From Chiloscyllium plagiosum (taxonomy: Eukaryota): DNA of 64,000 nt. Under the pieces are notes generated by a model. The model did not search any database. It was not told the origin of the DNA and saw only the letters and a list, made by a program, of their open reading frames with translations. The translations under genes and the position numbers were made by a program. The stretch lies in the NCBI RefSeq assembly GCF_004010195.1, contig NC_057753.1, forward strand, positions 4,081,656 through 4,145,655, written 5' to 3'. Positions 18,984 to 63,980 of the stretch are shown piece by piece; position 1 is the stretch's first letter, and the number at the start of each line of letters is the position of its first letter.

Positions 18984-19894
18984 TCATTTTTTAAACATTT
19001 CAGCAAATAAGTTCAATGGATATGTCACACCTTTTTTTATCTCATCTCTGATTTTACTCTGGGTCCCAGCATAAATAAACGGATTGATGCAGGAACTCAA
19101 TAACTGAAGCATGTATCCACTTTGTTGGACAATAAATATGGACTTACTGGCATCAGAAACAGAGGAAAACGGAATATTCGCAATTCGCACATAAATGATT
19201 GTGACAAAGTACAACAAATACAAAAGGATGAAGCTTCCCGAGATGCCAAAGAGTAAAACAATCGACTTTCTTCGCTTCTCCATCTCTGGATCACTCACAT
19301 TCTCTCCATTACTATGCATCCGGAGTCTCGTGCGGGCTCTATTGGCTGCAACAATATGTCTGACAGTCAAAGCATTAAGCAGTATAATCAGAATGAATGG
19401 AAGACACGGAGTTACAATGGAACGAATCCAGTCATAGGCAGCCCATTCTGGTGTTGTATAATATTCTATTTTATGAGAACAGAACCGGGGTGTATTATCG
19501 ATTATGTATACAGGTTCATATGCAAAATATGTGGAGATGTTTTTTAGGCAGGACAGTGCTGACACAATTCCGATCACCCACGATGCCACCTTCTCAGTGC
19601 AATATTTTAATTTCAACTTTTGGCAACAAATGGCCACAAATCGATCAAAAGTAAACGCGACTGTTAACCAGACAGAACTGTCAATGACTGCAAAATTTAT
19701 AGAATTGCGAACACTGCATACTGGTGTGAGAGATAGGAAACTCAATCGAAAATAAATGCCAGCAATCCGGTTTAATATCACGACTGTGACCATGACCAGG
19801 AGATCTGCCATTGCCATTGACACAAGGTAATATGTGATACATCTAGAGAGTCCACATTTTCTTCGGGATAGAATCACAATCACTGCCAGGTTAG
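18984..19894 (-). CDS. Orphan class A GPCR gene A, coding exon 2 (rest of TM1 to C-terminus; full protein 326 aa)
   Basis: Acceptor tttctctttattgcag|CTAAC (AG at 19896-19895). Open frame to stop at 18984; 70+911=981 nt, in frame. Motifs: MAMADLLV (TM2), TFDRFVAIC (DRY-like), TM3 and ECL2 Cys, NPFIY (NPxxY). Confidence 0.93.
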
Positions 19895-21255: not shown

Positions 21256-21513
21256 TTTAATTTGTGAACACTGACACAAAGTATGGATTTAGAACTCTCC
21301 CTGTGGCTTCCAGCTCCGTACAAAAAATTACAATTGTCTTCCATCGTGGGACATGTTCTTTCCCTCGTTATCATCTCATCTTTTATTTAATTTGTGAACA
21401 CTGACACAAAGTATGGATTTAGAACTCTCCCTATGGCTTCCAGCTCCGTACAAAAAATTACAATTGTCTTCCATAGTGGGACATGTTCTTTCCCTCGTTA
21501 TCATCTCATCTTT
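21256..21513. repeat. Tandem duplication, period 130 bp
   Basis: 21256-21383 and 21386-21513 match with 2 substitutions. Confidence 0.95.
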
Positions 21514-23365: not shown

Positions 23366-24135
23366 CTATTAGAATGGGAGATAGAACACAGAACATGGAA
23401 CAATACAGAGCAAAACAGGCCCTTCGGCCCTCGAATTTGCGCCGACTTGTGAACGGATCTAAGCCGATCCCCCTACACAATCCCATCATCAGCCATATAC
23501 TTATCCAAGGACTGTTTAAATGCCCTTAATGTGGCCGAGTTATCTACATTGGCAAGCAGGGCATTCCAAGCCTTTACCACTCTCTGAGTAAAGAACCTGC
23601 CTCTGGCAAGTGTCTTAAAAATTTCACCCCTTAATTTGCTGCTATGGCCCTCGTACAAGCCAACGTCATCATCCTAGGAAAAAGGCTCTCACTACCCACC
23701 CTATCTAATCCTCTGATCAACTTGTATGTCTCTATTAAATCCCCTCTTAGCTTTCTTCTCTCCATTGAGAACAGATCCAGGTCCCTCAGCCATTCCTCAT
23801 AAGACCTTGCCTCTAGACTAGGCAGCATCCTGGTAAATCTCCTCTGCATCTTTTCCAATGCTTCCACATCATTCCTGTAATTGGACGACCAGAACTGTAC
23901 ACAATATCCCACGTGAGGCTGCAATAGCGTTTTGTACAGTTGCAGCATGACATCACGTCTCTGGAACTCAGTCCCTCTACCCAGAAAACCTAACCCACTG
24001 TATGCCTTCTTCACAGCACTATGAACCTGGGTGACAACTTTCAGGGATGTATATACATGGACATCAAGATCCCTCTGCACATCGACACTACCAAGAATCT
24101 TTCCATTGATCCAATATTCTGCTTTCCTGTTATTC
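23366..24135 (-). mobile_element. CR1 3' fragment (same subfamily as 16655-17616)
   Basis: ORF 23631..24191 VQRDLDVHV...LYKTLLQPHVGYCVQFWS...RKLRGDLIETYK. Confidence 0.9.
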
Positions 24136-26404
24136 AAACAAGGATGAGCACAAGAATCTCTTGACTTCTGCAACTCGACCCTGGTGACCATTCGGGTCCA
24201 TTTTTGGGTGTTCCACCGTGAATTGACTGGATGATAGATGCGTTAGCCAGGAGCTGCAAGTGGACACAATAGCTGCACACATGCTGTGAAGACCATCACT
24301 TCTCATATTTACCACATAGCACAGGAGAATATCATGAATGCAAGCTCTCCTGCAGCGATTTACTTTAAGTCCACTCGAAAGGAGTAAATAAGAATATTAT
24401 GAAATTACTTCTCATGCTCTGTGTCCTTACGCCCTTACCGTACTGAATTTTCATTCAAATCACGAATCAACCCTCATGCCACTTCTTTGTGATGCCAATG
24501 CTCGATTTATCTTCAAAATGATCAGGCCCCTGAAGCTGCTGCTGTTAAACTAGAACTTCCCTATTTCTGCTCAGTTGAAGTTTTAGTGTTGCGCCTGGAT
24601 CCTGACCTCGGATCCTGGCTCGGTCTAAATGTTCAGCTGAACCTGAAGGATGGTACATGACAAACGATAAACCACAAAAACCTCATTAACTATGAACTAG
24701 TATAAAACACGTAAAGTCTGTTGTCGTTTTCACTGCATTTCCCAAAATCGCATAAATACAGTATTACCCTGCCATGCTCACTCAGGACGTGCTATTTTTA
24801 TTGCTTTCGTGAAAGTTGACATGGACAGAACATGATTTTGAGGTGCCGGTGTTGGACTGGGGTGAATAAAGTTAAGAATCACGCAACATCAGATTATAGT
24901 CCAACAGGTTTAGCTGGAAGCTCCAAAAGCTAGTGCTTCCAAATAAACCTGTTGGCCTATAACCTAGTGTTCTGTGATTTGTAATTTTGGACAGAACGTG
25001 TTGGTGATAAGAACACTGCTGAGTCGGCTTCAAAAAGCAGCCTCCCCACCACCCATACCCCCTTGCCCTGGATTTTTGCATAAAATTGAAAATTGTAGTC
25101 GTGAATCTAAGCTCAGAATACACATCCTTTACGCTATTAACAACTGTAGATTATCCCCTTCACTGTTCTCCAAGTCAATAGTAAAATATTTGGATGGCAT
25201 AACAAAGTAAACTGGTCTGATACAGTTGATGGAGGAGAAAAAAGAACAAACTAAAGGAAGTTAAGTGAAACAAAATCGAAAACATTGAAACCAAATAACT
25301 GTGAAGAAGCCACGCTTGCGAGCAGAAACTAAAAAAGGGGATAAGGTGTTTCTTTTCAATTAGCTAATGCGCAATTAACGTGCCTTTGAAAAGTCTGCAT
25401 TTTGCTCGCACAAGAAATGCCCTAAAGAGAAGGGGCATTAGTCTTCTTGCCCCTTTGAGGAAGATATATTTTTACGATACAATGGCAAGTCAAAATTCTT
25501 CAGCGGACCTGCAGCTTAAACCACAGATTAAAACTTTCGTTTATCATCATCGTCATAATTGCAATCCCTAATATTGCCCCTTCAATATATTGTTTATTTA
25601 ATTAAGTTCAGTTCAGCGTTATTAAAAGAAAAATAATCCTTTCAATGAACGAGCCATTTCAGGTAATCATTTTGTAACTGGGAAAATCAGTGGTGAAATG
25701 AATCTACCTATCCAAGCTAACTAAAATCCAACAGTGCACCCACCCGCGTTGGCAATAATAGTTTGATATTTCACCTGCTCTGAAATAATGCTGCTAGATC
25801 AGTGTCTCTGCACAGTTCAAATACAATGATGTCAAGGTATCTTATTGATTTTCCACCCAAAACATATTTCTTAAGAGTGCAATCGATTTGAAATTACACT
25901 GTGAGTGTAGTACCCAAGTCAAACACAGTAACAGTACTGACACAATAGAATTACTTCCAGATCGTTATTGGGCAAATGGTCGAGTTAAAACAATGAATGT
26001 AAGTCTGTTACAATAAGTTTGTCTAAATTTAACGGTGACCAATTCTACCGATAATATGAGAAACAAACAGCACATCAAGAGGTGAAATGACAATTCCAAA
26101 TAAGACAGGTTCCACCATTAATATCGCCAGATTATGTTCGTAGCTGAAATGCATTACCATGATACAATGTTGAATTAATACTGTTGCTGCTACTGTATAT
26201 TGTAAGTTATGATAAATAGCAAAGTTTTTTTTATTCCAGTGAAACGAAATGTCTTAAATTGGTGAGTCACAGCATTTTATTGAATACAATTGGAGACGGA
26301 AGAACTATAATATAGAGAAGAAGAGCAAAAGAAATATCTTCTGTAAATGTAAACTTGAAGTACATAGATACGAAATAATGACAACACTAATTTGAATAAT
26401 TTAC

Positions 26405-26474
26405 CTGGAACTCCGATAGCAGCTAGGATAGGATAGTAAATGGCAAACACCAGACCTATTGGTAGTCCATGCAT
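26405..26474 (-). CDS. Orphan class A GPCR gene A (GPR139/GPR142-like), coding exon 1 (MHGLPIGLVFAIYYPILAAIGVP + 1 nt)
   Basis: ATG at 26474, 70 nt, ends CCAG|GTAAAT (GT donor at 26404-26403). The phase-1 G joins CT at the start of exon 2 to give Ala, producing TM1 ...GVPANLAVIVIL. 19/23 aa identical to the exon at 58225-58294. Confidence 0.9.
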
Positions 26475-26524
26475 TTCTTGTCAGAAGCTTTGAGAGTGCT
26501 CTGCACTTTCCTGCAAAGTGCTTG

Positions 26525-26562
26525 CATTTGTACCTGATGTCAGGCCCCTGAGAGACAATTAG
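26525..26562 (-). promoter_or_regulatory. Putative proximal promoter cassette of gene A: homeodomain TAATTG + O/E(EBF)-like TCTCAGGGGC + CTGACA + TATA-like TACAAAT
   Basis: Minus strand reads ctTAATTG-like cTAATTGtcTCTCAGGGGcCTGACAtcaggTACAAATg; aligns without gaps to the gene B upstream cassette at nearly the same distance from the ATG. Confidence 0.5.
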
Positions 26563-26959
26563 TTAGTTTAAATTTTACAGGCACCGAATGTATTCTAATA
26601 ACAATTTCCAGCTGATGTGCACCTGAACTTTTGTTTTGGTGAGACTTTTCTTTTCATGGGATGTGACAGAAAATGCTAAAGGCAATTACAAATTGACCTT
26701 TGAAATATTCCAGCAACGCATGTTTATGAGAAATGACAGCAGCTTGGGTTTTGGACTTGTACCTAAGTACTATTGACTGAGCGTGATGCATTTTATAGGG
26801 AGAAATGCGGCCAATTTCTTCCCTCTAACCATTCGTCGCCATGTAAGGTCACCACGTCGGTGTGCTCTTGATTCAAACTCTACCTTGCTTCAAACAGTTC
26901 CCCTCAAAAACCCCACATACCCGGATCTCAGAATCCGTTTGCACTAATTCCACAGAATC

Positions 26960-27132
26960 TTATGAGTATGGAATCAGGCCATTCGACATAACAAGTCCAC
27001 ACCGAAAAACATCGTGCCCTTCCACCCTATTCCTGCAACCCCCATCTAACCCACACAGACACGGGGAGAATGTTCAAACTTGACCAAGTCATCTGAGGGA
27101 GCAGTACTAACAACTGAGCCACCGGGCGGCCC
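26960..27132 (-). mobile_element. Deleted SINE remnant
   Basis: acccacacagacacggggagaatg and actgagccaccgggcggccc motifs. Confidence 0.6.
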
Positions 27133-28539
27133 CTTAATTATGTGCTTTTATTATGCACAGGTCCAGCTCAGTAACGTACATTAGGTATTCAGGATTCCGT
27201 ATGATGACCGACTCTGCAGATTTACTAATAACGTTACATTCACTATGGACCTGCGCAGTTACTGACAGCACGTCCGGTTCAGCACGGTTATGTTCATGGT
27301 GAACGTGTGCAGTTCAAAAGAAAACATTCACATCAACAGTTCACCGGGACAACATTCAGTTATGGCAGTGTTAGGTAGACCCAGAAGGGGATCTAACATA
27401 TGCTTAGGCCGGAGAACATGAAGAACGTGCCTAGATAATTTATTTTCAGGTTTGACGAGTGTATTTCAGTATGATTATATTCAGTGTGAACTTGGTCATT
27501 TCAACGGTTGCAATCAGTGTTTACCAGTCTGCAAAATTTGCATTCGGTTTTCACAAGTCCTGTTCTCGATAATTACGTTTTACGCAGACAACAATTTGAG
27601 CTCAAAATGATTACTGCAGTGGGACAGGACCTGGGAAAAATGGTTATTTTCAGAACAGACTGGTCAATCTCGTAAAATATACATTTGTTGTGAAGAAAAG
27701 CATAAAATTGTGGCAATTCTTAATACGTATGCCACTTGCAGGGCCACGACGGGAAGCATTGCAGTCAAACCCATCACAAAGGAAGATGGCTTCGATGTTA
27801 CAAGTTCATAAGTTTAACTCTATATTGAACTCGGCATCATGGCCAATTAAAAACGACTCTGAGCTCCTTCAACCGCAACTTTTCCCGATTCAAATTGTCA
27901 GAAGTATTCATTTGATAGGGCAAGAAACATAAATAATGCAGAAAAGAGGCGTGTAATGTATTGCAAGGTGGGTAGTTTCTACAATAACTCTTTTTTTTGT
28001 CTAGCTATGTTAGATATGGGCACGCTCGGTATTCATTTCACACTTTTTTTTCATTTAGTGACGATTTCAAAAAAAGTTGGACAACGTTCTGGCAGCAGCT
28101 AATAAATAAAGCATCCCTCAGGCAATAGCTTGAAAGTAACCATTTCCAAAATTAGAACAAAATCAACACATCCACGCTCTTGGAATTATGGACACCAGTA
28201 TCAATGATTGTCGCAGAGCTTCAAATGAGCCAGAGAATTACTCGTATTGACGTCAAAATACAGTCGTATGTGGAGAGTGAGAATTTTACATCCAAGCAGC
28301 TTTCAGCTGGACTCTCATCAAGAAACCATCTTAAGAATGTGAACGTATGTCCCCAATTAGTTTTTACCTAAATGGCTGGGAGTTGGAGATTCACTTGCAT
28401 GGAAAGTAAGAAAATCCAAGGGAAAGGAGAAATTGCTAATGATGGGATGAGAGTTACAAGAAAATAAAAAAAAAGGACAGTTTGTGAATGTCAAGGAACC
28501 ATACAAGCGTAGGGGCATTTGTTAATAGAACAATTTTAA

Positions 28540-40583: not shown

Positions 40584-41503
40584 TTAGTATTTTAGACACT
40601 TATAGAATCTAACAAAGAGACTTAGTGAATATTTCACTCCATTCTTTAATTCATCCCTGACTTTACCCTGTATTCCTGCATAAATAAAAGGGTTTATGCA
40701 AGAACTGAGCAACTGCAGCATAAATCCGCTTTCTTCCAGAATAAAGTTAGAATCATTGAAATTTGAACCTGAGAAGTAATTAATATCTGCAATTCGGACA
40801 AAGACAACTGTTGCAAAAAACAACAAATACAACAAGATGAAGCTCCCGGAGATGCTAAAGAGTAAAGCAATGGACTTCTTCCGCTTCTCGATCTCAGGGT
40901 CACTCTGATTCTTCACAGTCTTCTGAACCCAGAGCCTCTTGCGGGCTCTATTCGCTATTAGAATGTTTTTGATAGTGAGAGCATTGAGCAGTAATATTAG
41001 AACAAAGGGGAGACAAGGCGTTAAAATTGTAAGAATCCAGTCATAAGTGGCCCATACAAGTGACGTATAAAATGTTGATTTTATGCTGCAGAACCAAGGT
41101 ATGCTTTTGGCTATGTACACTGGTTCATAAATAAAATATAAGAATACATTAACCAAACTGCTCAGTGTGTAGACGACTGCGACCACGCGCACTGCCATTC
41201 TCTTGGTGCAATATTTAATTTTGAGCTTTTGACAACAAATGGCCACAAATCTGTCAAAGGTGAAAGCGACAGTTAACCATACTGACATGCTGAAAGTTCC
41301 ATAGTTCAGGACAGAACGAAGACTGCATAATGGCGTGATGGACAGGAAACTGATCGGAAAAAATATGCCAGCGATTCGGTTTAATATCACAGCGGTGGTA
41401 ATGACCAGGAGATCCGCCACTGCTATTGACACCAGGTAGTAAATGATGCATCCAGAAAGACCACATGTTTTTCGGTACAGGATTATGATCACTGCTAAGT
41501 TAG
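40584..41503 (-). CDS. Orphan class A GPCR gene B, coding exon 2 (full protein 329 aa)
   Basis: Acceptor tccttttctgttctag|CTAAC (AG at 41505-41504); 70+920=990 nt, in frame. IAVADLLV, TFDRFVAICCQKLK, NPFIY. Paralogue of gene A (211/326 identities by manual ungapped count). Confidence 0.93.
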
Positions 41504-43904: not shown

Positions 43905-45995
43905 TCATAGTCATGGAGTTAGACAGCAAGGAATCAGATACTTCACTCCAATTCGTGCCCAAACACCAGATAACCTGAATTAGTCTGGTCCCATTTGCCA
44001 GTATTTGGCCTATATCTGTCGTAACCCTTCCCATTCATATACCCATTCAGATGCCTTGTAATTGTTGTAATTGTATCAGACTCATCCCCTTGCTCCGGTA
44101 AAAATAATGACTGCAGATGCTGGAAACCAGATTCTGGATTACTGGTGCTGGAAGAGCACAACAGTTCAGACAGCATCCGAGTAGCCGTAAAATTGGCGTT
44201 TCGGGCAAAAGCCCTTCATCAGGAATACAGGCAGAGAGCCTGAAGGGTGGAGAGATAAGTGAGAGGAGGGTGGGGGATGCCCTGGGATTGAAGTGTTCCG
44301 AGGTGGAAGATGAGGCGTTCTTCCTCCAGGCGTCTAGTGGTGAGGGAGCGGCGGTGAAGGAGACCCAGGACCTCCATGTCCTCGGCAGAGTGGGAGAGGG
44401 AGTTGAAATGTTGGGCGACAGGGTGGTGTGGTTGATTGGTGCGGGTGTCCCAGAGATGTTCCCTAAAGCACTCTGCTAGAAGGCATCCAGTCTCGCCAAG
44501 ATAGAGGAGACCGCATCGGGAGCAACGGATACAATAAATGATATTGGTGGATGTGCGGGTAAAACGTTGACTGATGTGGAAGGCTCCTTTAGGGCCTTGG
44601 GTGGAGATGAGGGAGGAGTTGTGGGCACAGGTTTTGCAATTCCTGTGGTGGCAGGGGAAGGTGCTAGGATGGAAGGGTGGGTTGTCGAGGGGCATGGACC
44701 TGACCATGTAGTCAAGGAGGGAACATTCTTTCCAGAAGGCGGAAAGGGGTGGGGAGGGAAATATATCCCTGGTTTGAGGTGGCAGAAATGTCGGCGGGTG
44801 ATTTGGTTTATGCGAAGGTTGGTAGGGTGGAAGGTGAGCAGCAGGGGCGGTAGCTCATTCCATGCGCACAACTCCCTCTGTCTGAAAAAAAACCCAGGTT
44901 ACTTTTAAGTAAGAGGAATGGTTAGTAACCTTGCAGATAAGAGCACAATTGGTTGTGTAGTAGGCAATGAAGAGGGTTATTCTCGCATCTTAACTCCCTA
45001 GTTTTGGACTCCCCTATCGCGAGGAAAAGGCCCTTTCCATGAATTGCACTATTTTATAAACTTCTATAAGGTCACCTCTGAAGCCCCCAACACGCAAGGG
45101 AAAACCACAGTTTATTCTGCCTCTCCCTATAACTCAAAACTTCCAATCCTGACAACAGCGTTATTAATCTTTTCACACTTCCAAGTTCAATAACATATTT
45201 CCTAAAGTAGGGAGACTAGAATTTAATGCAGTATTCTATAAATGGCCTAACCAATGTCCCGTATAGCTGCAAAATAACATTCCAAAAGCTATATCAATGC
45301 ATTCTCAATAAAGGCAAGTTATCTAAATGCCTTCTTCACTATCTTCTTCACTGCACTCTATTTGCAATTCCAGTTTCAAGCAACTCTGGATTTGTACCAC
45401 AAGGTCTCTTTGTACGGTAACACTCCCCAGGACTCTTCCATAACATACATACGTCCTGTCGTGATTCGCCTTAATAAAATGTAAGAGCTCAGATTTATCT
45501 CAATTAAACTCCAGCTGCAACGTCTCAGTCCATTCACCCATCTCATCAAGGCCGCACTATACCCTGAGCTAACTCTCTTCACTATCCAACAAGTTTGGTG
45601 TCATCGACAAACTTACGAACCATTCCTTTTATAATTTACATTCAAATCATTTATATAATTAACAAAAAGCAGTGAACCCAGCACCGATCCTTATGGCTCA
45701 CGACTGGTCACAGGCCTTCAGTCCGAAATGCAAACCTCCAACACTACCATCTGTCGCCTACCTTCAAACCCGTGTAACATCAAAATGGCTAGCTTTCTCT
45801 GGATTTCATGTGATTTAACCTTGCTAACCAGTCTATCATGTGGAATCTTTTCGAATGCCTTGCTGATATCCACACAGACAACTTCCACTGCTCTGCCTTC
45901 GTCAATTTTCTTTGTCAGTCCTTCGAAAAAAAACGACCTAGTTAGTACGACACGATTTCCCACGCGCAAATTCGTATTGACTATTTCTAATCAGT
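43905..45995 (-). mobile_element. CR1 RT/3' fragments interrupted by Penelope
   Basis: CR1 tail at 43905-44095 resumes at about 44851; IDEGRAVEVVCVDISKAFEKIPHDRL at about 45850. Confidence 0.75.
44101..44850 (-). mobile_element. Penelope-like element 3' part with GIY-YIG endonuclease and terminal repeat
   Basis: ORF 44219..44707: FPCHHRNCKTC, NIIYCIRCSRCGLLYLGETG, FREHL, PVAQHFNS; hammerhead-like motif at 44195-44226. Confidence 0.9.
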
Positions 45996-56226: not shown

Positions 56227-58224
56227 AAAGCGGCTTGTCAGTCAGCCCTGCTATTGGGAGTTTGAATGCAATCAATTCATGTGATACCAGTTACCATATA
56301 CATCGCATAGCATTGATTTCAGTTACTCAATTATTTGTGATTTTTGAAATTACTCTGAATATGTTTGACACCACTATGGTCTCAGGTATGACATTTAGCA
56401 TCCTAACCAGCCATTGAATAGAAAGGTGCTTCAACGTGATCTCTTCTTCTTAAGTAAACACATTAACTTTGTATCCTATAATTTTGACTCATCTGTCAAT
56501 ACGAAGTATCTATTTAAACCAGCTCTGCCAAGAACTCTCCTTGTTGTCAATTTTACGAACAAGATTTGGATCAGTTCCTCTTTAATCTCCAGGACGACAA
56601 ACATCAGTTTCTATAAACGACGTCTGCCACAGAAAGTCTCATATACGTGAAACTACTACAAATACGTTCAACATGCATTCTAAATCTTCCACACCCTTGT
56701 AAAGTTATGAGGCCCTAAAGTTGATCATAATGCAACACTTGGATCAGAAATAAACTGTTTAAAAGAACAATCCATCCAAGAAACTGATCAATAACTACCA
56801 TTATCATGGCAAAGAAAGAGATGAAATACGAGTTCACATGAATGGGACTTTAGTAAAATCAGTACTGTCACATTGAAACTACATTTGTCCATTTGACTGT
56901 TAACTTATGTGTTTTCATCACTGCAAAAAATAAATCCCAGTGCAAAGATTTTTTGGATTTGCTGATACTTGCTGATTTATCCTTAAAGCCTTTAGTAAAG
57001 AACAATGCATGTGCACAGGTGTACACATCTCTCGCAGAAAGCCTCATCCAAGGAATCTTTCCACTCACATTTAGAAGTGTCCTCCTATGGAACATTTCAC
57101 TCTGCCATTGTAATGATTTTAAGTTCAGTCGGGTTTTCTAACTTCACTCTTTCATTTTAATTTTAATCACAAACAGAATTTCGAATCACTACAAGGGCCA
57201 TACGGTCACTTCGTATTAGTTGACACAGGTTGAATGTTGTACTTTAATGATGCCCTTCTCCTCATTGCATCAAGCACTGTCTTGATTCCTCACTGGACGT
57301 ACTCCTTTCTGATTACATTTTAACTCATTAAATATTTAAGCGTCATTCCATGGTAACTACAGATGATGAACCCAGACTTTTATATTTGTTGCAAATGTGC
57401 CATGCACTCAACTAGCTAATCGTTTTCCTTGGTGCAACAACAGTGTGACACTTCACCCAAATTACTATTGTAATGAACAAAATCAAACTACATTTACGTT
57501 GCCATTACATTTTGATAGGTGACAGATTCTCTCACTTGTTCAGGTCATGGCTCATACTAAAACTGACAGCGTATGCTTGATTCCTGCTCCGTCTCATGTA
57601 CACCTAGAAACTGCATTCTCACGCTATCCCTGAATGTGAAAGGTAATGGAAAAGCAGAGTTAAGCGAAAAAAAAAAGCTGGTGCACTGCAGGCACAGAAT
57701 TAATGCCAACTGCGAATGATGCGAGTGAATGCCTTTGGGCAAAGCACCATGGAAATAGATTGAGAAAGAATCGCAGAGTACAAATGCCAAAAACGATTTG
57801 CATTTATAGCATGAAACGATTAGGGTAAAGCAGCTAAATCGTGCAGTCGTTAAGATCACATTCGATCTTGAATGCAGTACACTAATTAAGTTAAAATGCT
57901 CTGATTAAAAAAAAAAAATTCTAAAATGTACCAGTTAAAAGAGAGGACTAATTTTGTACAAAAAAGGAGAACAATTTGCAAAAGTGTTGAAATTATTCCT
58001 TTGAATGAGCGAAAAAAATGACATTGTGAAGTAGCAGGGTTTGTTTAACCTATTTTTGTAATCAACCTATTCAGAGATATTAGGGCACGCCTCTGGAACA
58101 AGTGGCAATTGAATGAGAGTCTCTCAGTCCAGGGTTAGCGATACTACCACTGCTTCATAAGAATCAGAACACTGATGAGTTAATCGATTACCTTAATACC
58201 TATTAACTAATTTTTATACTTTAC

Positions 58225-58294
58225 CTGGAACGCCAATAGCTGCGAGGACAGGGTAATAAATGGCAAACACCAGACCTGTTGGTACTGCGTGCAT
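58225..58294 (-). CDS. Orphan class A GPCR gene B, coding exon 1 (MHAVPTGLVFAIYYPVLAAIGVP + 1 nt)
   Basis: Read by eye, not in the ORF track. ATG at 58294, 70 nt, CCAG|GTAAAG donor; same length and phase as gene A exon 1. Confidence 0.88.
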
Positions 58295-58342
58295 TTCTGT
58301 CAGAAAATCTGGATGCATTCTGTTTAGAAATACATGTTGGAT

Positions 58343-58380
58343 CTATTTATAATGCGTGTCAGTCTCTTGGGAGTTAATTG
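58343..58380 (-). promoter_or_regulatory. Putative proximal promoter cassette of gene B: CAATTA + TCCCAAGAGA (O/E-like) + CTGACA + TATA box TATAAATAG
   Basis: Minus strand reads CAATTAacTCCCAAGAGACTGACAcgcatTATAAATAG; TATA box begins 57 nt upstream of the ATG. Confidence 0.6.
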
Positions 58381-58859
58381 TATGTTTTGATTTTTTACAT
58401 TGATGACCGCATTTCTAACAGATTAACACAGCTACTTAACTTTGACTCAACTTTGCAATTGAATTGGTCATGAAGTCTTCTTCTTTGATCTGAGCGGATC
58501 TAATGTGAAACTCAGATGGTCTCCAACACCATCATAATGAGTTTTGTATTTTTATATTAAATTATCGACAATCTGTCTTGTTGTAACAGAACATCATACA
58601 TCAAGAATTAACATGCTTAGCCCTTCAATGTAGAGCAAAGTGATAACAGTAAAATGTATTAAAGAGGAGGCGCAAGAGTGTCGCAGAGTAAAGCAAACGT
58701 AAATTCTCCCTCCTGATCTTGATTTGATCCATGTGAAAGTTAATCACAAATAAAGTGATTGTAAAACTTTCTGAGACTGTGTACCTACATTAACATATCG
58801 TCTCTGTGTTGATTATGCATGAGTGCAGTGAAGTATGGTAATGTCAAGTGTTCATGGCA

Positions 58860-59830
58860 AATTTTCAGAATCACTTGTTTGTCATTTACATAATTGATTG
58901 CGATGAGAATATAGAAGGCATGGTTTGTAAGTTGTGGATGACACCAAAATTGATGGTATAGTGGACCTTGACGAAACTTATCTATTATTACAAAGAGATA
59001 CTGACCAACTGGTTCAAAGGGCTGAAGACTCGAAAGATGGAGTTTAATTTGGATAAATGCGCGATATGGCGTTTTCATAAAATAAACAAGAGCAGAACTT
59101 ATAATATTAAAAGGAGGACCTTGGGTGGTGTTGTAGAGCAGAGCGACCTAGGGGTTCAGGTACAAATTTATTTGAAGTCTTCATCATGCATAGATAGGTT
59201 GGTTAAGAAGGCGTTCAGCTCGCCTTCATTCCTCAGATCGTTGAGTGTCGGAGTTAGGACGTTGAATCGAGTTTGTAGAAGATGGTGAGGCCTTTTCTGG
59301 AGCGCTGTAATCAGTTCTGATCGCCATGTTATAAGAAGGATATTATTAGCATGGAGAGCATTCAGAAGAAATTTGCCAGGAGGATGGTGGGAATGGAGAG
59401 TTGTAAAGAAGGACGAGATAGGCTGACACATTTCTCACTAGAGCATGGGACATTGAGGGGTGAAATTATCGAGGTTTATAAAATAATAAGATGTATAGAT
59501 AAGTTGAATGGCAGGTGTCTTTGCCATAGGGTGGGGAATTTCAAGACCAGCGGAAACATTTTTAATGTGAGAGGAAAAAATATGTTCAAAAATGATGAGG
59601 TTATCTTTTAAACACAGGCAGTGTTTTATGTTTAGAATGAACTTCCTGAGGAAGTGTTGGATGCGGGTACAGTTTAAACAGACAGGAAAAATTTAGTTAA
59701 GTTCATGAGTAAAAATTGTTTGGAGGGATATGGACCAATCACAGGTCGGTAGGACTTGTTTAGTTTGGGATTATGGTTGTTATAGACTAGTTGGAACAAA
59801 GGGCCTGTGTCCGTGATGTTTGAGGACATC
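58860..59830 (+). mobile_element. CR1 RT/3' fragment upstream of gene B
   Basis: KMEFNLDKC, QSDLGVQV, TLRGEIIEVYKII. Confidence 0.8.
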
Positions 59831-61329
59831 ACTGTGGGTGTTATTGTTATCATAATGAAAGTGGGGAAAGATACTTCTCAAGGTGGTTACATTGTATGAG
59901 TTTTGCTGTCAGGCGCCAACACAACAGTGTGGATGTCTGCTTTACATCAAGCCGATCACATTCTCGATTTATAATGTAGGGGATTTATTGTAATCCGCTC
60001 TGATCAATGTGATCGGTTGTAGTTCAGTAAGGAAAGGTCAAGTTCAGCACCGTTTTATTTACAATGAACAAATGCAATTCAGGTCAATTAATTTAATTAT
60101 AAACAAAGTTGTTTCAGCAAGCTTATGCCTCTGTTGATTTGTTCAGTTTGCTGATAACAATTATGGTGGGCAGGAGTATATCAACAAATGTAGATACTTT
60201 GTCGATAATTCCACCTGAGCAGCATTGCGTTATTTTAATGCAGAACAGTTGCGGCTCTTTATGCTGGCATTTTGAGTTGAAATGAAGTCTGTTCAGAGAC
60301 ATTTGTTTTCATGTGCATATGCCCAAATCGAAGTCGCCTATTTCCAAAATGATTTGGTCCACTTTGGCGCCATTGCGTTTTGTTAAAAATAAACATAATA
60401 AGCACTTGAAATATCAGTGCTGAGTGGTGTTAGAACCTACTTGTTTTGTTGAGAGTCCGTTTTCCAGTGTTCACAGTACTCTGTTACATTTTTGTGAAAA
60501 GATCGTTTAGCAGGTTTCTGTTGGGTATGCACGAGTCTACATCATCAGACTTTGTTCAGTTAGTACGGACCCAGTTTCATCAATTGATCCATTCTATGTA
60601 GATTGGTCATCTTGAGCATAGTGTGGACTTCCATTAAATTCTCTCCCCATGCATCTCCGTCATTCATGCAATGTTCTCCAGTATTTTTGCAATTTCCACT
60701 TCTCTGCAGTTAATGTTGCTTTTCACCTTGGACATCGATCTTTCCCTCAACTTCCCACCAGAGCATTGAGGGCTCTTGCCCAATTCAACTTCACACTCCC
60801 TTTCTCCTATCGAAAATGCATTCACTTTGAGGGAGAATTGCATCTTACCTGTTATTTATTTCTTTTCCAAATTAATCTCATTGCTCTGGGGACTTCGATG
60901 GATAGTAACAACATCAACCTGCCCTTGAGACACAAAGTTTCTGAAGTTAAAATTTACCTTAAATTCTTTTCTTGATCCAAGCACAACCGAGACAGTACAC
61001 TAATTTGAGGAAAGACCAAATAAAATATGTCTTTTGATGTACTTTTAATTTTTCAATGAACTAAAATAACATGCAGCCAATTCCACGAGGCAATCTTTTA
61101 CCATGTTTTGAGAACGAAATTTTAAATCTACATTTTGTTGTAGATGTTACTGATACAGCACTGCTATAGGCTTAAAATGACATTATACTATACTAACCAA
61201 ATGTGTTCCACACGGATGTAGGCACAGAGCATACTTTCAAATCACAGTACATTCGCAAAATATGAACTAAATTCAAAGCATTTTCATACGTGGAGTTCCA
61301 GGAGACAAAATGCACAAATTATGCAACGT

Positions 61330-63047: not shown

Positions 63048-63980
63048 TTAGGGGTGGAAGAAGTGAACACGGCGAAATTGTTGGAATGGGAAAGTACTAC
63101 ATGACGAAGGAGATGACTTATTTAACATATTTAGGGTGGAAGCGAGCGAAGTACAGCTTCGTGAGGTAATCTGTGGGCTTGTAGCAGAGTGCGTTAATGG
63201 ATGTGTCCGTCCTTGATAGAGATTTGAGTGTCGAAGACAGACTGATTCTGAAGAGTAGTTCATAGTAAGCCTGATGGTGGGATGAAACCTGTTGATATTG
63301 CTACGTAGTTGTTTCGGTGATTCCTTGCCAAGAGTGGAAAGGATGTATCTGGTGTATAGATTGGTCCGTGTCCTGCGTAAAAAAGACGTCTTGCTCGTAG
63401 TTGTGCATGAAATTGTTGGTCGAATGGAGTGCAAATTGGTCGCCATGGCTATTCCGTGTGTCTGGATGAAGAACTGGTTGTTGAAGGTGAAGACATAGTG
63501 GTTGCGGTTGTAGTGCATGAGTTGTAGGATGGCGTCTGGAAATTGACAGTTGAGGGTGTTAAGAACCGAGGCTTTTGCAGTGATGCCATTCTCCTGGGGG
63601 ATCACGGTGCAGAGTGTTGAAACGTCCGTTGTGACATGGAATGTTCCTGGTTTGACTGGTCCGTGGATGCTGAGTTTCTGTAAAAAAATCCGTAATGTCA
63701 CGCCAGAAGGTGGGGTCCCTTGCACAATGCGTTTCAACATGTCTTCGACAGAACCATAGAGGTTGTCACACCGGGTTCCTGTCTCCGTGCTGTCGGAATG
63801 TATGACTCTAAGTGTTGGTTGGAGTACAGGGGGAACTCTAAATTCCAGGGATGCACTTTGTCCTTGGTAACGAAATGGCTGGATCACAGTTAGGCGTACT
63901 TCCTACTATGGTTGAAAATCCAGTAGAAATTCGGGCAACTGAGGTGTTTCAGGATGTTGCCTGATGATGTGATTACCAGG
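63048..63980 (-). mobile_element. Penelope-like reverse transcriptase fragment (frameshifted)
   Basis: VTTDVSTLCTVIP, VFTFNNQFFIQTHGIAMA, NINRFHPTIRLTMNYS match Penelope RT motifs. Confidence 0.85.

Follow-up and report, generated by a model that had tools for sequence, protein, structure and literature searches.

In which cells are the two receptor genes encoded in a 64,000-nucleotide stretch of Chiloscyllium plagiosum DNA (contig NC_057753.1; hereafter, the window) expressed, and what does the sequence ahead of them say about it? The genes belong to a family with more than 2000 database entries, which are filed as 'probable GPR139', and a promoter module made of recognizable sites is a cis-regulatory clue to where such receptors are expressed.

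Two receptor genes with a common block ahead of exon 1

The receptor genes of the window, gene A and gene B, are both located on the minus strand and are both intact two-exon genes with a coding intron inside TM1. Their exon-2 products match Pfam 7tm_1 alone. Each first exon is preceded by a series of short motifs, which are listed here together with the exons (window coordinates):

58375..58380, minus strand: homeodomain-type hexamer CAATTA of gene B (TAATTG on the other strand), starting 86 nt before the ATG at 58294
58363..58372, minus strand: O/E (EBF)-like 10-mer TCCCAAGAGA of gene B, one mismatch from the palindrome TCCCNNGGGA
58357..58362, minus strand: CTGACA of gene B, identical in gene A at 6/6 positions
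between CTGACA and the TATA box, minus strand: spacer CGCAT of gene B, 5 nt
58344..58351, minus strand: TATA box TATAAATA of gene B, inside TATAAATAG (58351-58343), 57 nt before the ATG
58321..58322, minus strand: predicted initiator CA of gene B, with the start predicted at 58321 and a 5' UTR of 27 nt
58225..58294, minus strand: coding exon 1 of gene B, 70 nt, GT donor, followed by a phase-1 intron of 16,721 nt
40584..41503, minus strand: coding exon 2 of gene B; the spliced frame is open for 329 aa and encodes a class A 7TM receptor
26556..26561, minus strand: homeodomain-type hexamer TAATTG of gene A, 87 nt before the ATG, in the opposite orientation to gene B
26544..26553, minus strand: O/E-like 10-mer TCTCAGGGGC of gene A (other strand GCCCCTGAGA), one mismatch from TCCCNNGRGA
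26538..26543, minus strand: CTGACA of gene A, the same as in gene B
26525..26532, minus strand: non-canonical TATA-like box TACAAATG of gene A, five bases after CTGACA
26502..26503, minus strand: predicted initiator CA of gene A, 30 nt past the TATA-like box, with the start predicted at 26502
26405..26474, minus strand: coding exon 1 of gene A, 70 nt, followed by an intron of 6,510 nt
18984..19894, minus strand: coding exon 2 of gene A; the spliced frame is open for 326 aa

The gene B module reads, 5' to 3' on the minus strand, CAATTA, AC, TCCCAAGAGA, CTGACA, CGCAT and TATAAATAG. Re-reading of positions 58380-58343 returned the sequence, order, spacing and strand given in the initial annotation, which had also correctly placed the hexamer 86 nt upstream of the ATG (58294), counted one mismatch between the O/E-like site and the EBF palindrome (TCCCAAGAGA versus TCCCNNGGGA) and noted the TATA box (58351-58343) beside the homeodomain and O/E sites. 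An independent contig from the same species (run X1, record 8), which spans 58224-58650, differs at two positions, 58381 and 58488, neither of which falls within the module. Counted from the first T of the TATA box, the predicted start of gene B at 58321 is 30 nt downstream. A start about 25-30 nt past the TATA box had been expected, and a CA dinucleotide is indeed found exactly 30 nt on in both genes, the start itself being a prediction. The predicted 5' UTRs of both genes measure 27-28 nt, and the O/E-like sites are located about 42-51 nt ahead of the predicted starts. In gene B, the homeodomain/O/E site is 21 nt from the TATA box and directly ahead of the coding exon of a non-OR gene. The CTGACA/TGAC element is presumably a TALE/Meis-like site or a CRE/AP-1 (CREB/ATF-type) half-site, both labels being putative.

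The first 23 residues of gene B are common to the starts of homologous proteins. An upstream in-frame ATG on the minus strand at 58318 would add eight residues; it is probably little used, since it is only 3 nt past the predicted start. The N-terminal extensions of the RefSeq models P0057 and P0111 are also eight residues long. Directly before the ATG, both genes have a short block containing TCTGAC (58307-58295 and 26488-26475, minus strand), which holds a second TGACA and across which several shark models read a similar 'ELL.E' peptide. This block possibly represents an element of the 5' UTR or a downstream promoter element. Its interpretation as the splice acceptor of an upstream non-coding exon was rejected, short of proof: the true acceptors have pyrimidine fractions of 0.85 and 0.70, compared to 0.48 and 0.52 before the ATG, an AAG occurs in gene A, and the reading frame of several RefSeq models runs across the block.

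Paralogous contigs of run X1 align at 58215-58309, i.e., at exon 1, and none of them aligns upstream of it at 80% likeness. Near the donor, intron 1 of gene B contains a high-copy repeat, probably a SINE, at 58051-58170, where many contigs match; the gene A intron carries a 130-nt tandem duplication at 21256-21513 (two copies, 98% alike). Tandem satellite arrays were not found upstream of either promoter (58400-60300 and 26600-28500). Open frames at 296-997, 23631-24191, 44219-44707 and 63048-63740 resemble, by eye, decayed retrotransposon fragments.

Conservation of the module between genes and its possible presence in other sharks

The O/E-like 10-mer alone occurs at chance level: four copies were found in the 64-kb window compared to 3.3 expected, and 44 of 100 shuffled sequences reached four. 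Both strands were also scanned for a homeodomain hexamer followed within 0-3 nt by an O/E site with at most one mismatch, which gave two matches compared to 0.6 expected. This count is not significant by itself, since seven of 60 shuffles reach two; with two mismatches allowed, the signal is gone (four found, 5.1 expected), and when the 2-nt gap is required or the TATA box added, none of 60 shuffles reaches two. It is the location of the two matches that exceeds chance: they begin at 58380 and 26561, at distances of 86 and 87 nt upstream of the ATGs of genes B and A, and each has a 2-nt gap. The scan was defined after both promoters had been seen, and the shuffle counts are therefore post hoc; the weight is on position and divergence.

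The modules of genes A and B are in ungapped register, with 23 of 38 positions identical. Within this alignment, CTGACA is identical at all six positions and the five-base spacer at none, and identity over the 100 nt upstream is 34/100. The two proteins share 211 of 326 residues, the fourfold-degenerate sites of the genes are identical at 41 of 90 positions (K2P about 1.0, near-saturated), and a BLAST comparison of the two 2-kb upstream regions gave no match at E 0.01. When the gene B module was mutated at the fourfold-site rate, 0.05% of 200,000 trials retained the homeodomain and O/E sites together, and no trial retained all four elements; with divergence set leniently to 25%, these fractions rose to 9% and 0.5%. 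Furthermore, gene A carries the hexamer and the best-matching O/E reading in the opposite orientation to gene B, and the fit to the consensus is kept in both.

A view into other sharks was obtained from N-terminally extended gene models, in which sequence upstream of the true ATG may translate the promoter. A 25-position pattern was derived from genes A and B, and the best back-translation of each extension was scored. The mis-extended horn-shark model XP_067870107.1 (P0115), whose extension resembles one reading frame of the gene A promoter, fits at all 25 positions (0 mismatches) when placed precisely at -86; 400 shuffles came no closer than four mismatches, and 4011 offsets across the other 27 extensions no closer than five. 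This result is one of compatibility, since back-translation picks the most favourable codons; the null is equally lenient. Among the five extensions of the subfamily that reach -86, one fits fully, one partially and three do not fit. The partial fit is the zebra shark (Stegostoma) model XP_059497707.1 (P0124), which keeps TGAC, TATA and initiator in register and has four mismatches at the homeodomain and four at the O/E positions. The core of the module may thus be TGAC plus TATA, as P0124 retains these without the homeodomain and O/E positions. The extensions of P0043, P0089 and P0123 did not match the pattern; splicing or frameshifts in the non-fitting models, or genuine variation among promoters, may account for this. 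Positional conservation across paralogues, which had been set beforehand as a check, is accordingly seen in gene A and P0115, in part in P0124, and is missing from P0043, P0089 and P0123. A protein search with the promoter-derived P0115 extension, one of three candidates, returned only the query itself, and metagenome scans for exon 1 and for the protein gave no usable match.

The fixed-register block before exon 1 is well supported as a conserved and selected proximal promoter; the conservation above background comes from two DNA sequences and one back-translated model.

A shark and ray expansion related to GPR139

A search with the exon-2 product of gene A matched 2136 proteins. Among the 120 matches listed, 119 were named, all from sharks, and most carried the RefSeq label 'probable G-protein coupled receptor 139'; the best among the matches listed was a Stegostoma protein (91%). 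The family occurs as tandem copies, and the Atlas clusters that match it are likewise named 'probable GPR139'. The best match of solved structure is human GPR139 (7vug, 9m42; E 6.6e-11, a distant, gapped alignment), and motifs in TM1 and TM3 are common to genes A and B and the GPR139/GPR142-related clade of class A receptors. Membership in the OR or TAAR families was rejected: applying motif patterns that we take to be the signatures of these families, none of four OR motifs and not the one TAAR motif was found in either protein, and the coding intron is located in TM1.

True GPR139 is reported to have two exons and 70% identity from human to zebrafish (PMC7318219). The shark genes share the two exons, the best solved-structure match and the RefSeq label with GPR139; unlike GPR139 and GPR142, however, their family is massively expanded rather than single-copy, and the similarity is distant and gapped. 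Orthology to GPR139 was rejected on these grounds (E 6.6e-11 with gaps and 2136 family matches, as opposed to a single copy of high identity). By sequence, genes A and B are members of a GPR139-related group of class A receptors that has expanded in sharks and rays.

A quick tree was calculated from 55 selected rows, among which true GPR139 and GPR142 were not included. Genes A and B, whose group shares the 70-nt first exon, fall into a 20-row clade of shark 'MH-start' paralogues (SH-aLRT 99). This clade is nested in a 41-row clade (SH-aLRT 97) of mostly shark and ray proteins, two salamander rows and several unnamed representatives. The nearest well-supported clade outside is a conserved 'GPR139-like' one, whose members are 31-34% identical to the shark family and which possibly corresponds to GPR210A/B (PMC6504862; the identifiers are unmatched). 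The GPR139-like clade has about one gene per species and its own shark member, and the expanded family is therefore a separate lineage. GPR139-like proteins (P0223, P0288-P0405) are found in sharks, coelacanth, ray-finned fish, amphibians, turtles and squamates, and no mammal or bird member occurs among the named rows of the 120 matches listed; two of the models are annotated as TMEM183A isoforms, which suggests TMEM183A as a neighbour. Salamander proteins (P0221, P0273-P0276; Pleurodeles, Ambystoma, Lissotriton) join the shark/ray-expanded clade on a long branch and not the single-copy clade. The expanded lineage may predate sharks and have largely disappeared from bony vertebrates.

The variability of the binding pocket was assessed in 72 aligned rows (70 full-length top matches to gene A plus genes A and B, a biased sample), with positions numbered by offset from anchors and with a list of 21 positions that we presume to face the pocket. 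These positions average 1.45 bits compared to 0.64 at 180 other transmembrane positions (0/20,000 permutations), and compared to 0.90 at 58 non-pocket positions of the outer half (18/20,000 permutations). With its large size, tandem copies and variable pockets, the family looks like a sensory repertoire; the variability of the pockets also fits immune or other sensing roles. No published description of the shark expansion or its promoter was found in the literature covered, which leaves subscription journals and many supplements outside. The closest paper is a survey of vertebrate GPCRs that describes fish and coelacanth subtypes GPR210A/B and in whose available text the word 'shark' does not occur (PMC6504862).

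Candidate regulators and site of expression

Several known regulatory systems resemble the shark module. The motifs found to be enriched in mouse OR promoters are O/E and homeodomain sites, and a conserved O/E site is found within 200 bp in 246 of 314 promoters (PMC3247239); O/E-like sites are also present in 39 of 39 V1R promoters examined (PMC3247230). As in these promoters, O/E-like and homeodomain sites of the shark genes are located less than 200 bp from the (predicted) start in A+T-rich surroundings, and as with mouse OR and V1R genes, the genes form a clustered multigene family of class A receptors. By its sequence, the shark element appears to resemble a proximal promoter of the OR/V1R type. 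It differs in that its sites are in fixed register with TGACA and a TATA box, whereas mouse OR promoters usually have no positioned TATA box (PMC5318403). Furthermore, the shark promoter is predicted 27 nt from the ATG of a gene with its intron inside TM1, whereas in mouse OR genes non-coding exons intervene and the distance from promoter to start codon averages 4.2 kb (PMC3247239).

The shark element is also similar to the Lhx2/Ebf composite of the Greek Islands, in which a TAATTG-type hexamer adjoins a degenerate EBF palindrome (PMC5608512, PMC11643329, PMC7804114). However, the gap is 1 bp in the Greek Islands (one probe sequence and one statement in the text) and 2 bp in both shark genes: hexamer and EBF 10-mer are 1 bp apart in the Sfaktiria probe (PMC5608512, supplementary file 7), and a 1-bp Lhx2/Ebf gap is stated in a preprint (PMC11643329). 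A mouse composite widened by 2 bp was a poorer competitor for the fusion protein, the spacing having been tested at +2 bp and not at +1 bp (PMC5608512). Moreover, the mouse composite is enriched in distal enhancers compared to OR promoters, whereas the shark element is promoter-proximal. A strict Greek Island composite was rejected, given the 2-bp gap and a position that is not in an intergenic OR-cluster enhancer. What remains of the 'composite' named in the initial annotation is a homeodomain site closely beside an O/E site; the spacing and the mouse association with enhancers instead of OR promoters speak against the term. The regulatory code as such is known; what is new is its presence on a GPR139-related shark lineage and its fixed register with TGAC and TATA.

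Since the module resembles the switches of mammalian smell-receptor genes, the family would likely comprise further smell receptors. We lean, by a modest degree, towards the module being an EBF plus homeodomain proximal promoter that would drive these receptors in olfactory sensory neurons. TBP would bind the TATA box and transcription would start at 58321; an EBF (O/E) dimer on the 10-mer would be flanked by a homeodomain factor, for example Lhx2 or Emx2, and by a TGAC-binding factor, the upstream factors covering about -59 to -36 from the predicted start. The receptors would thereby be switched on in an olfactory neuron, probably a microvillous one, and the paralogues would each recognize a water-borne ligand of their own; such ligands may plausibly be amino acids or peptides, as with GPR139, their distant relative. 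The microvillous type is proposed because catshark olfactory neurons are all reported to be TRPC2- and Go-positive (PMC10116579).

Single-cell RNA runs X5 and X6 (one sample of unspecified tissue; 2% and 6% of reads) gave no reads at 58051-58650, and coverage in run X7 is confined to an intronic repeat; these runs carry no weight for or against expression. In catshark, the list of the 50 genes most specific to a 'brain and olfactory epithelium' library contains no GPCR; this is weak counter-evidence, because V2Rs are missing from that list as well (PMC11979771). V2R/OlfC expression is reported to be robust and dominant in the catshark nose, and an extra receptor family is therefore not required to explain it (PMC10116579).

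All of the conservation evidence is blind to tissue. Many kinds of neuron employ EBF and TAAT-binding proteins, and EBF is active in B cells too. A real EBF plus homeodomain promoter could be active elsewhere, in chemosensory cells of skin, gill, mouth or gut, in other neurons or in B-lineage or immune cells, which we consider rather unlikely, if worth serious attention. Expression of GPR139 is known from brain and pituitary, that of GPR142 from pancreas and gut (PMC7318219), COE/EBF genes serve as markers of sensory neurons far outside the nose (PMC7776563), and mouse sites co-bound by Lhx2 and Ebf are, in the portions of the data available, common outside OR clusters. On the other hand, a closely apposed pair of homeodomain and O/E sites is the pattern of OR regulatory DNA as far as the consulted reports describe it, and the size of the family and its variable pockets fit a repertoire of sensory neurons.

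It is also conceivable, and in our view improbable, that a conserved TATA promoter uses its upstream sites for other factors, presumably of AP-2, Ikaros/RBPJ or CREB/ATF type (putative names), the likeness to OR promoters being incidental. P0124 keeps TGAC, TATA and initiator but not the homeodomain or O/E positions, gene A reads TGACATCA, which is near a CRE, and has a G+C-rich 10-mer, and the O/E 10-mer taken alone occurs at chance frequency. However, the changes in 10-mer and hexamer among gene A, gene B and P0115 keep a fit to the EBF and TAAT consensus in one orientation or the other. Moreover, the consensus of AP-2 sites is GCC...GGC, and the gene B site, which starts with TCC and ends with AGA, is unlike it. 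That the block is functionless, a chance match or a passive inheritance from a recent duplication, is already largely refuted and hardly credible. In its favour, the motifs are short and their surroundings rich in A+T (GC 0.38), the two promoters share ancestry, and both had been seen when the scan was designed; against this stand the near-saturated synonymous divergence, the unalignable flanks, the 0/200,000 neutral retentions and the compatibility of P0115, from a different shark order, with a module at -86.

In fish, four olfactory receptor families are recognized, OR, TAAR, V1R/ORA and V2R/OlfC, and in the available account the shark family is not among them (PMC10116579). If the reading as an olfactory promoter holds, the family would share cell type and repertoire logic with these four. 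We regard it as an even bet that there is a fifth, so far unrecognized olfactory receptor family in sharks and rays, which would come from the GPR139/GPR142 lineage, would be far larger than their OR, TAAR, V1R and V2R sets combined, would have adopted the EBF plus homeodomain code of mammalian smell receptors independently and would be expressed as one or a few genes per neuron. The module narrows a guess of 'chemoreceptor-like' to a predicted start, predicted binders and a predicted tissue. If this proves true, the olfactory repertoire of sharks, animals thought to have few smell receptors, would be undercounted by a large factor, and the EBF plus homeodomain code would be older than the OR family or would have been reused independently of it.
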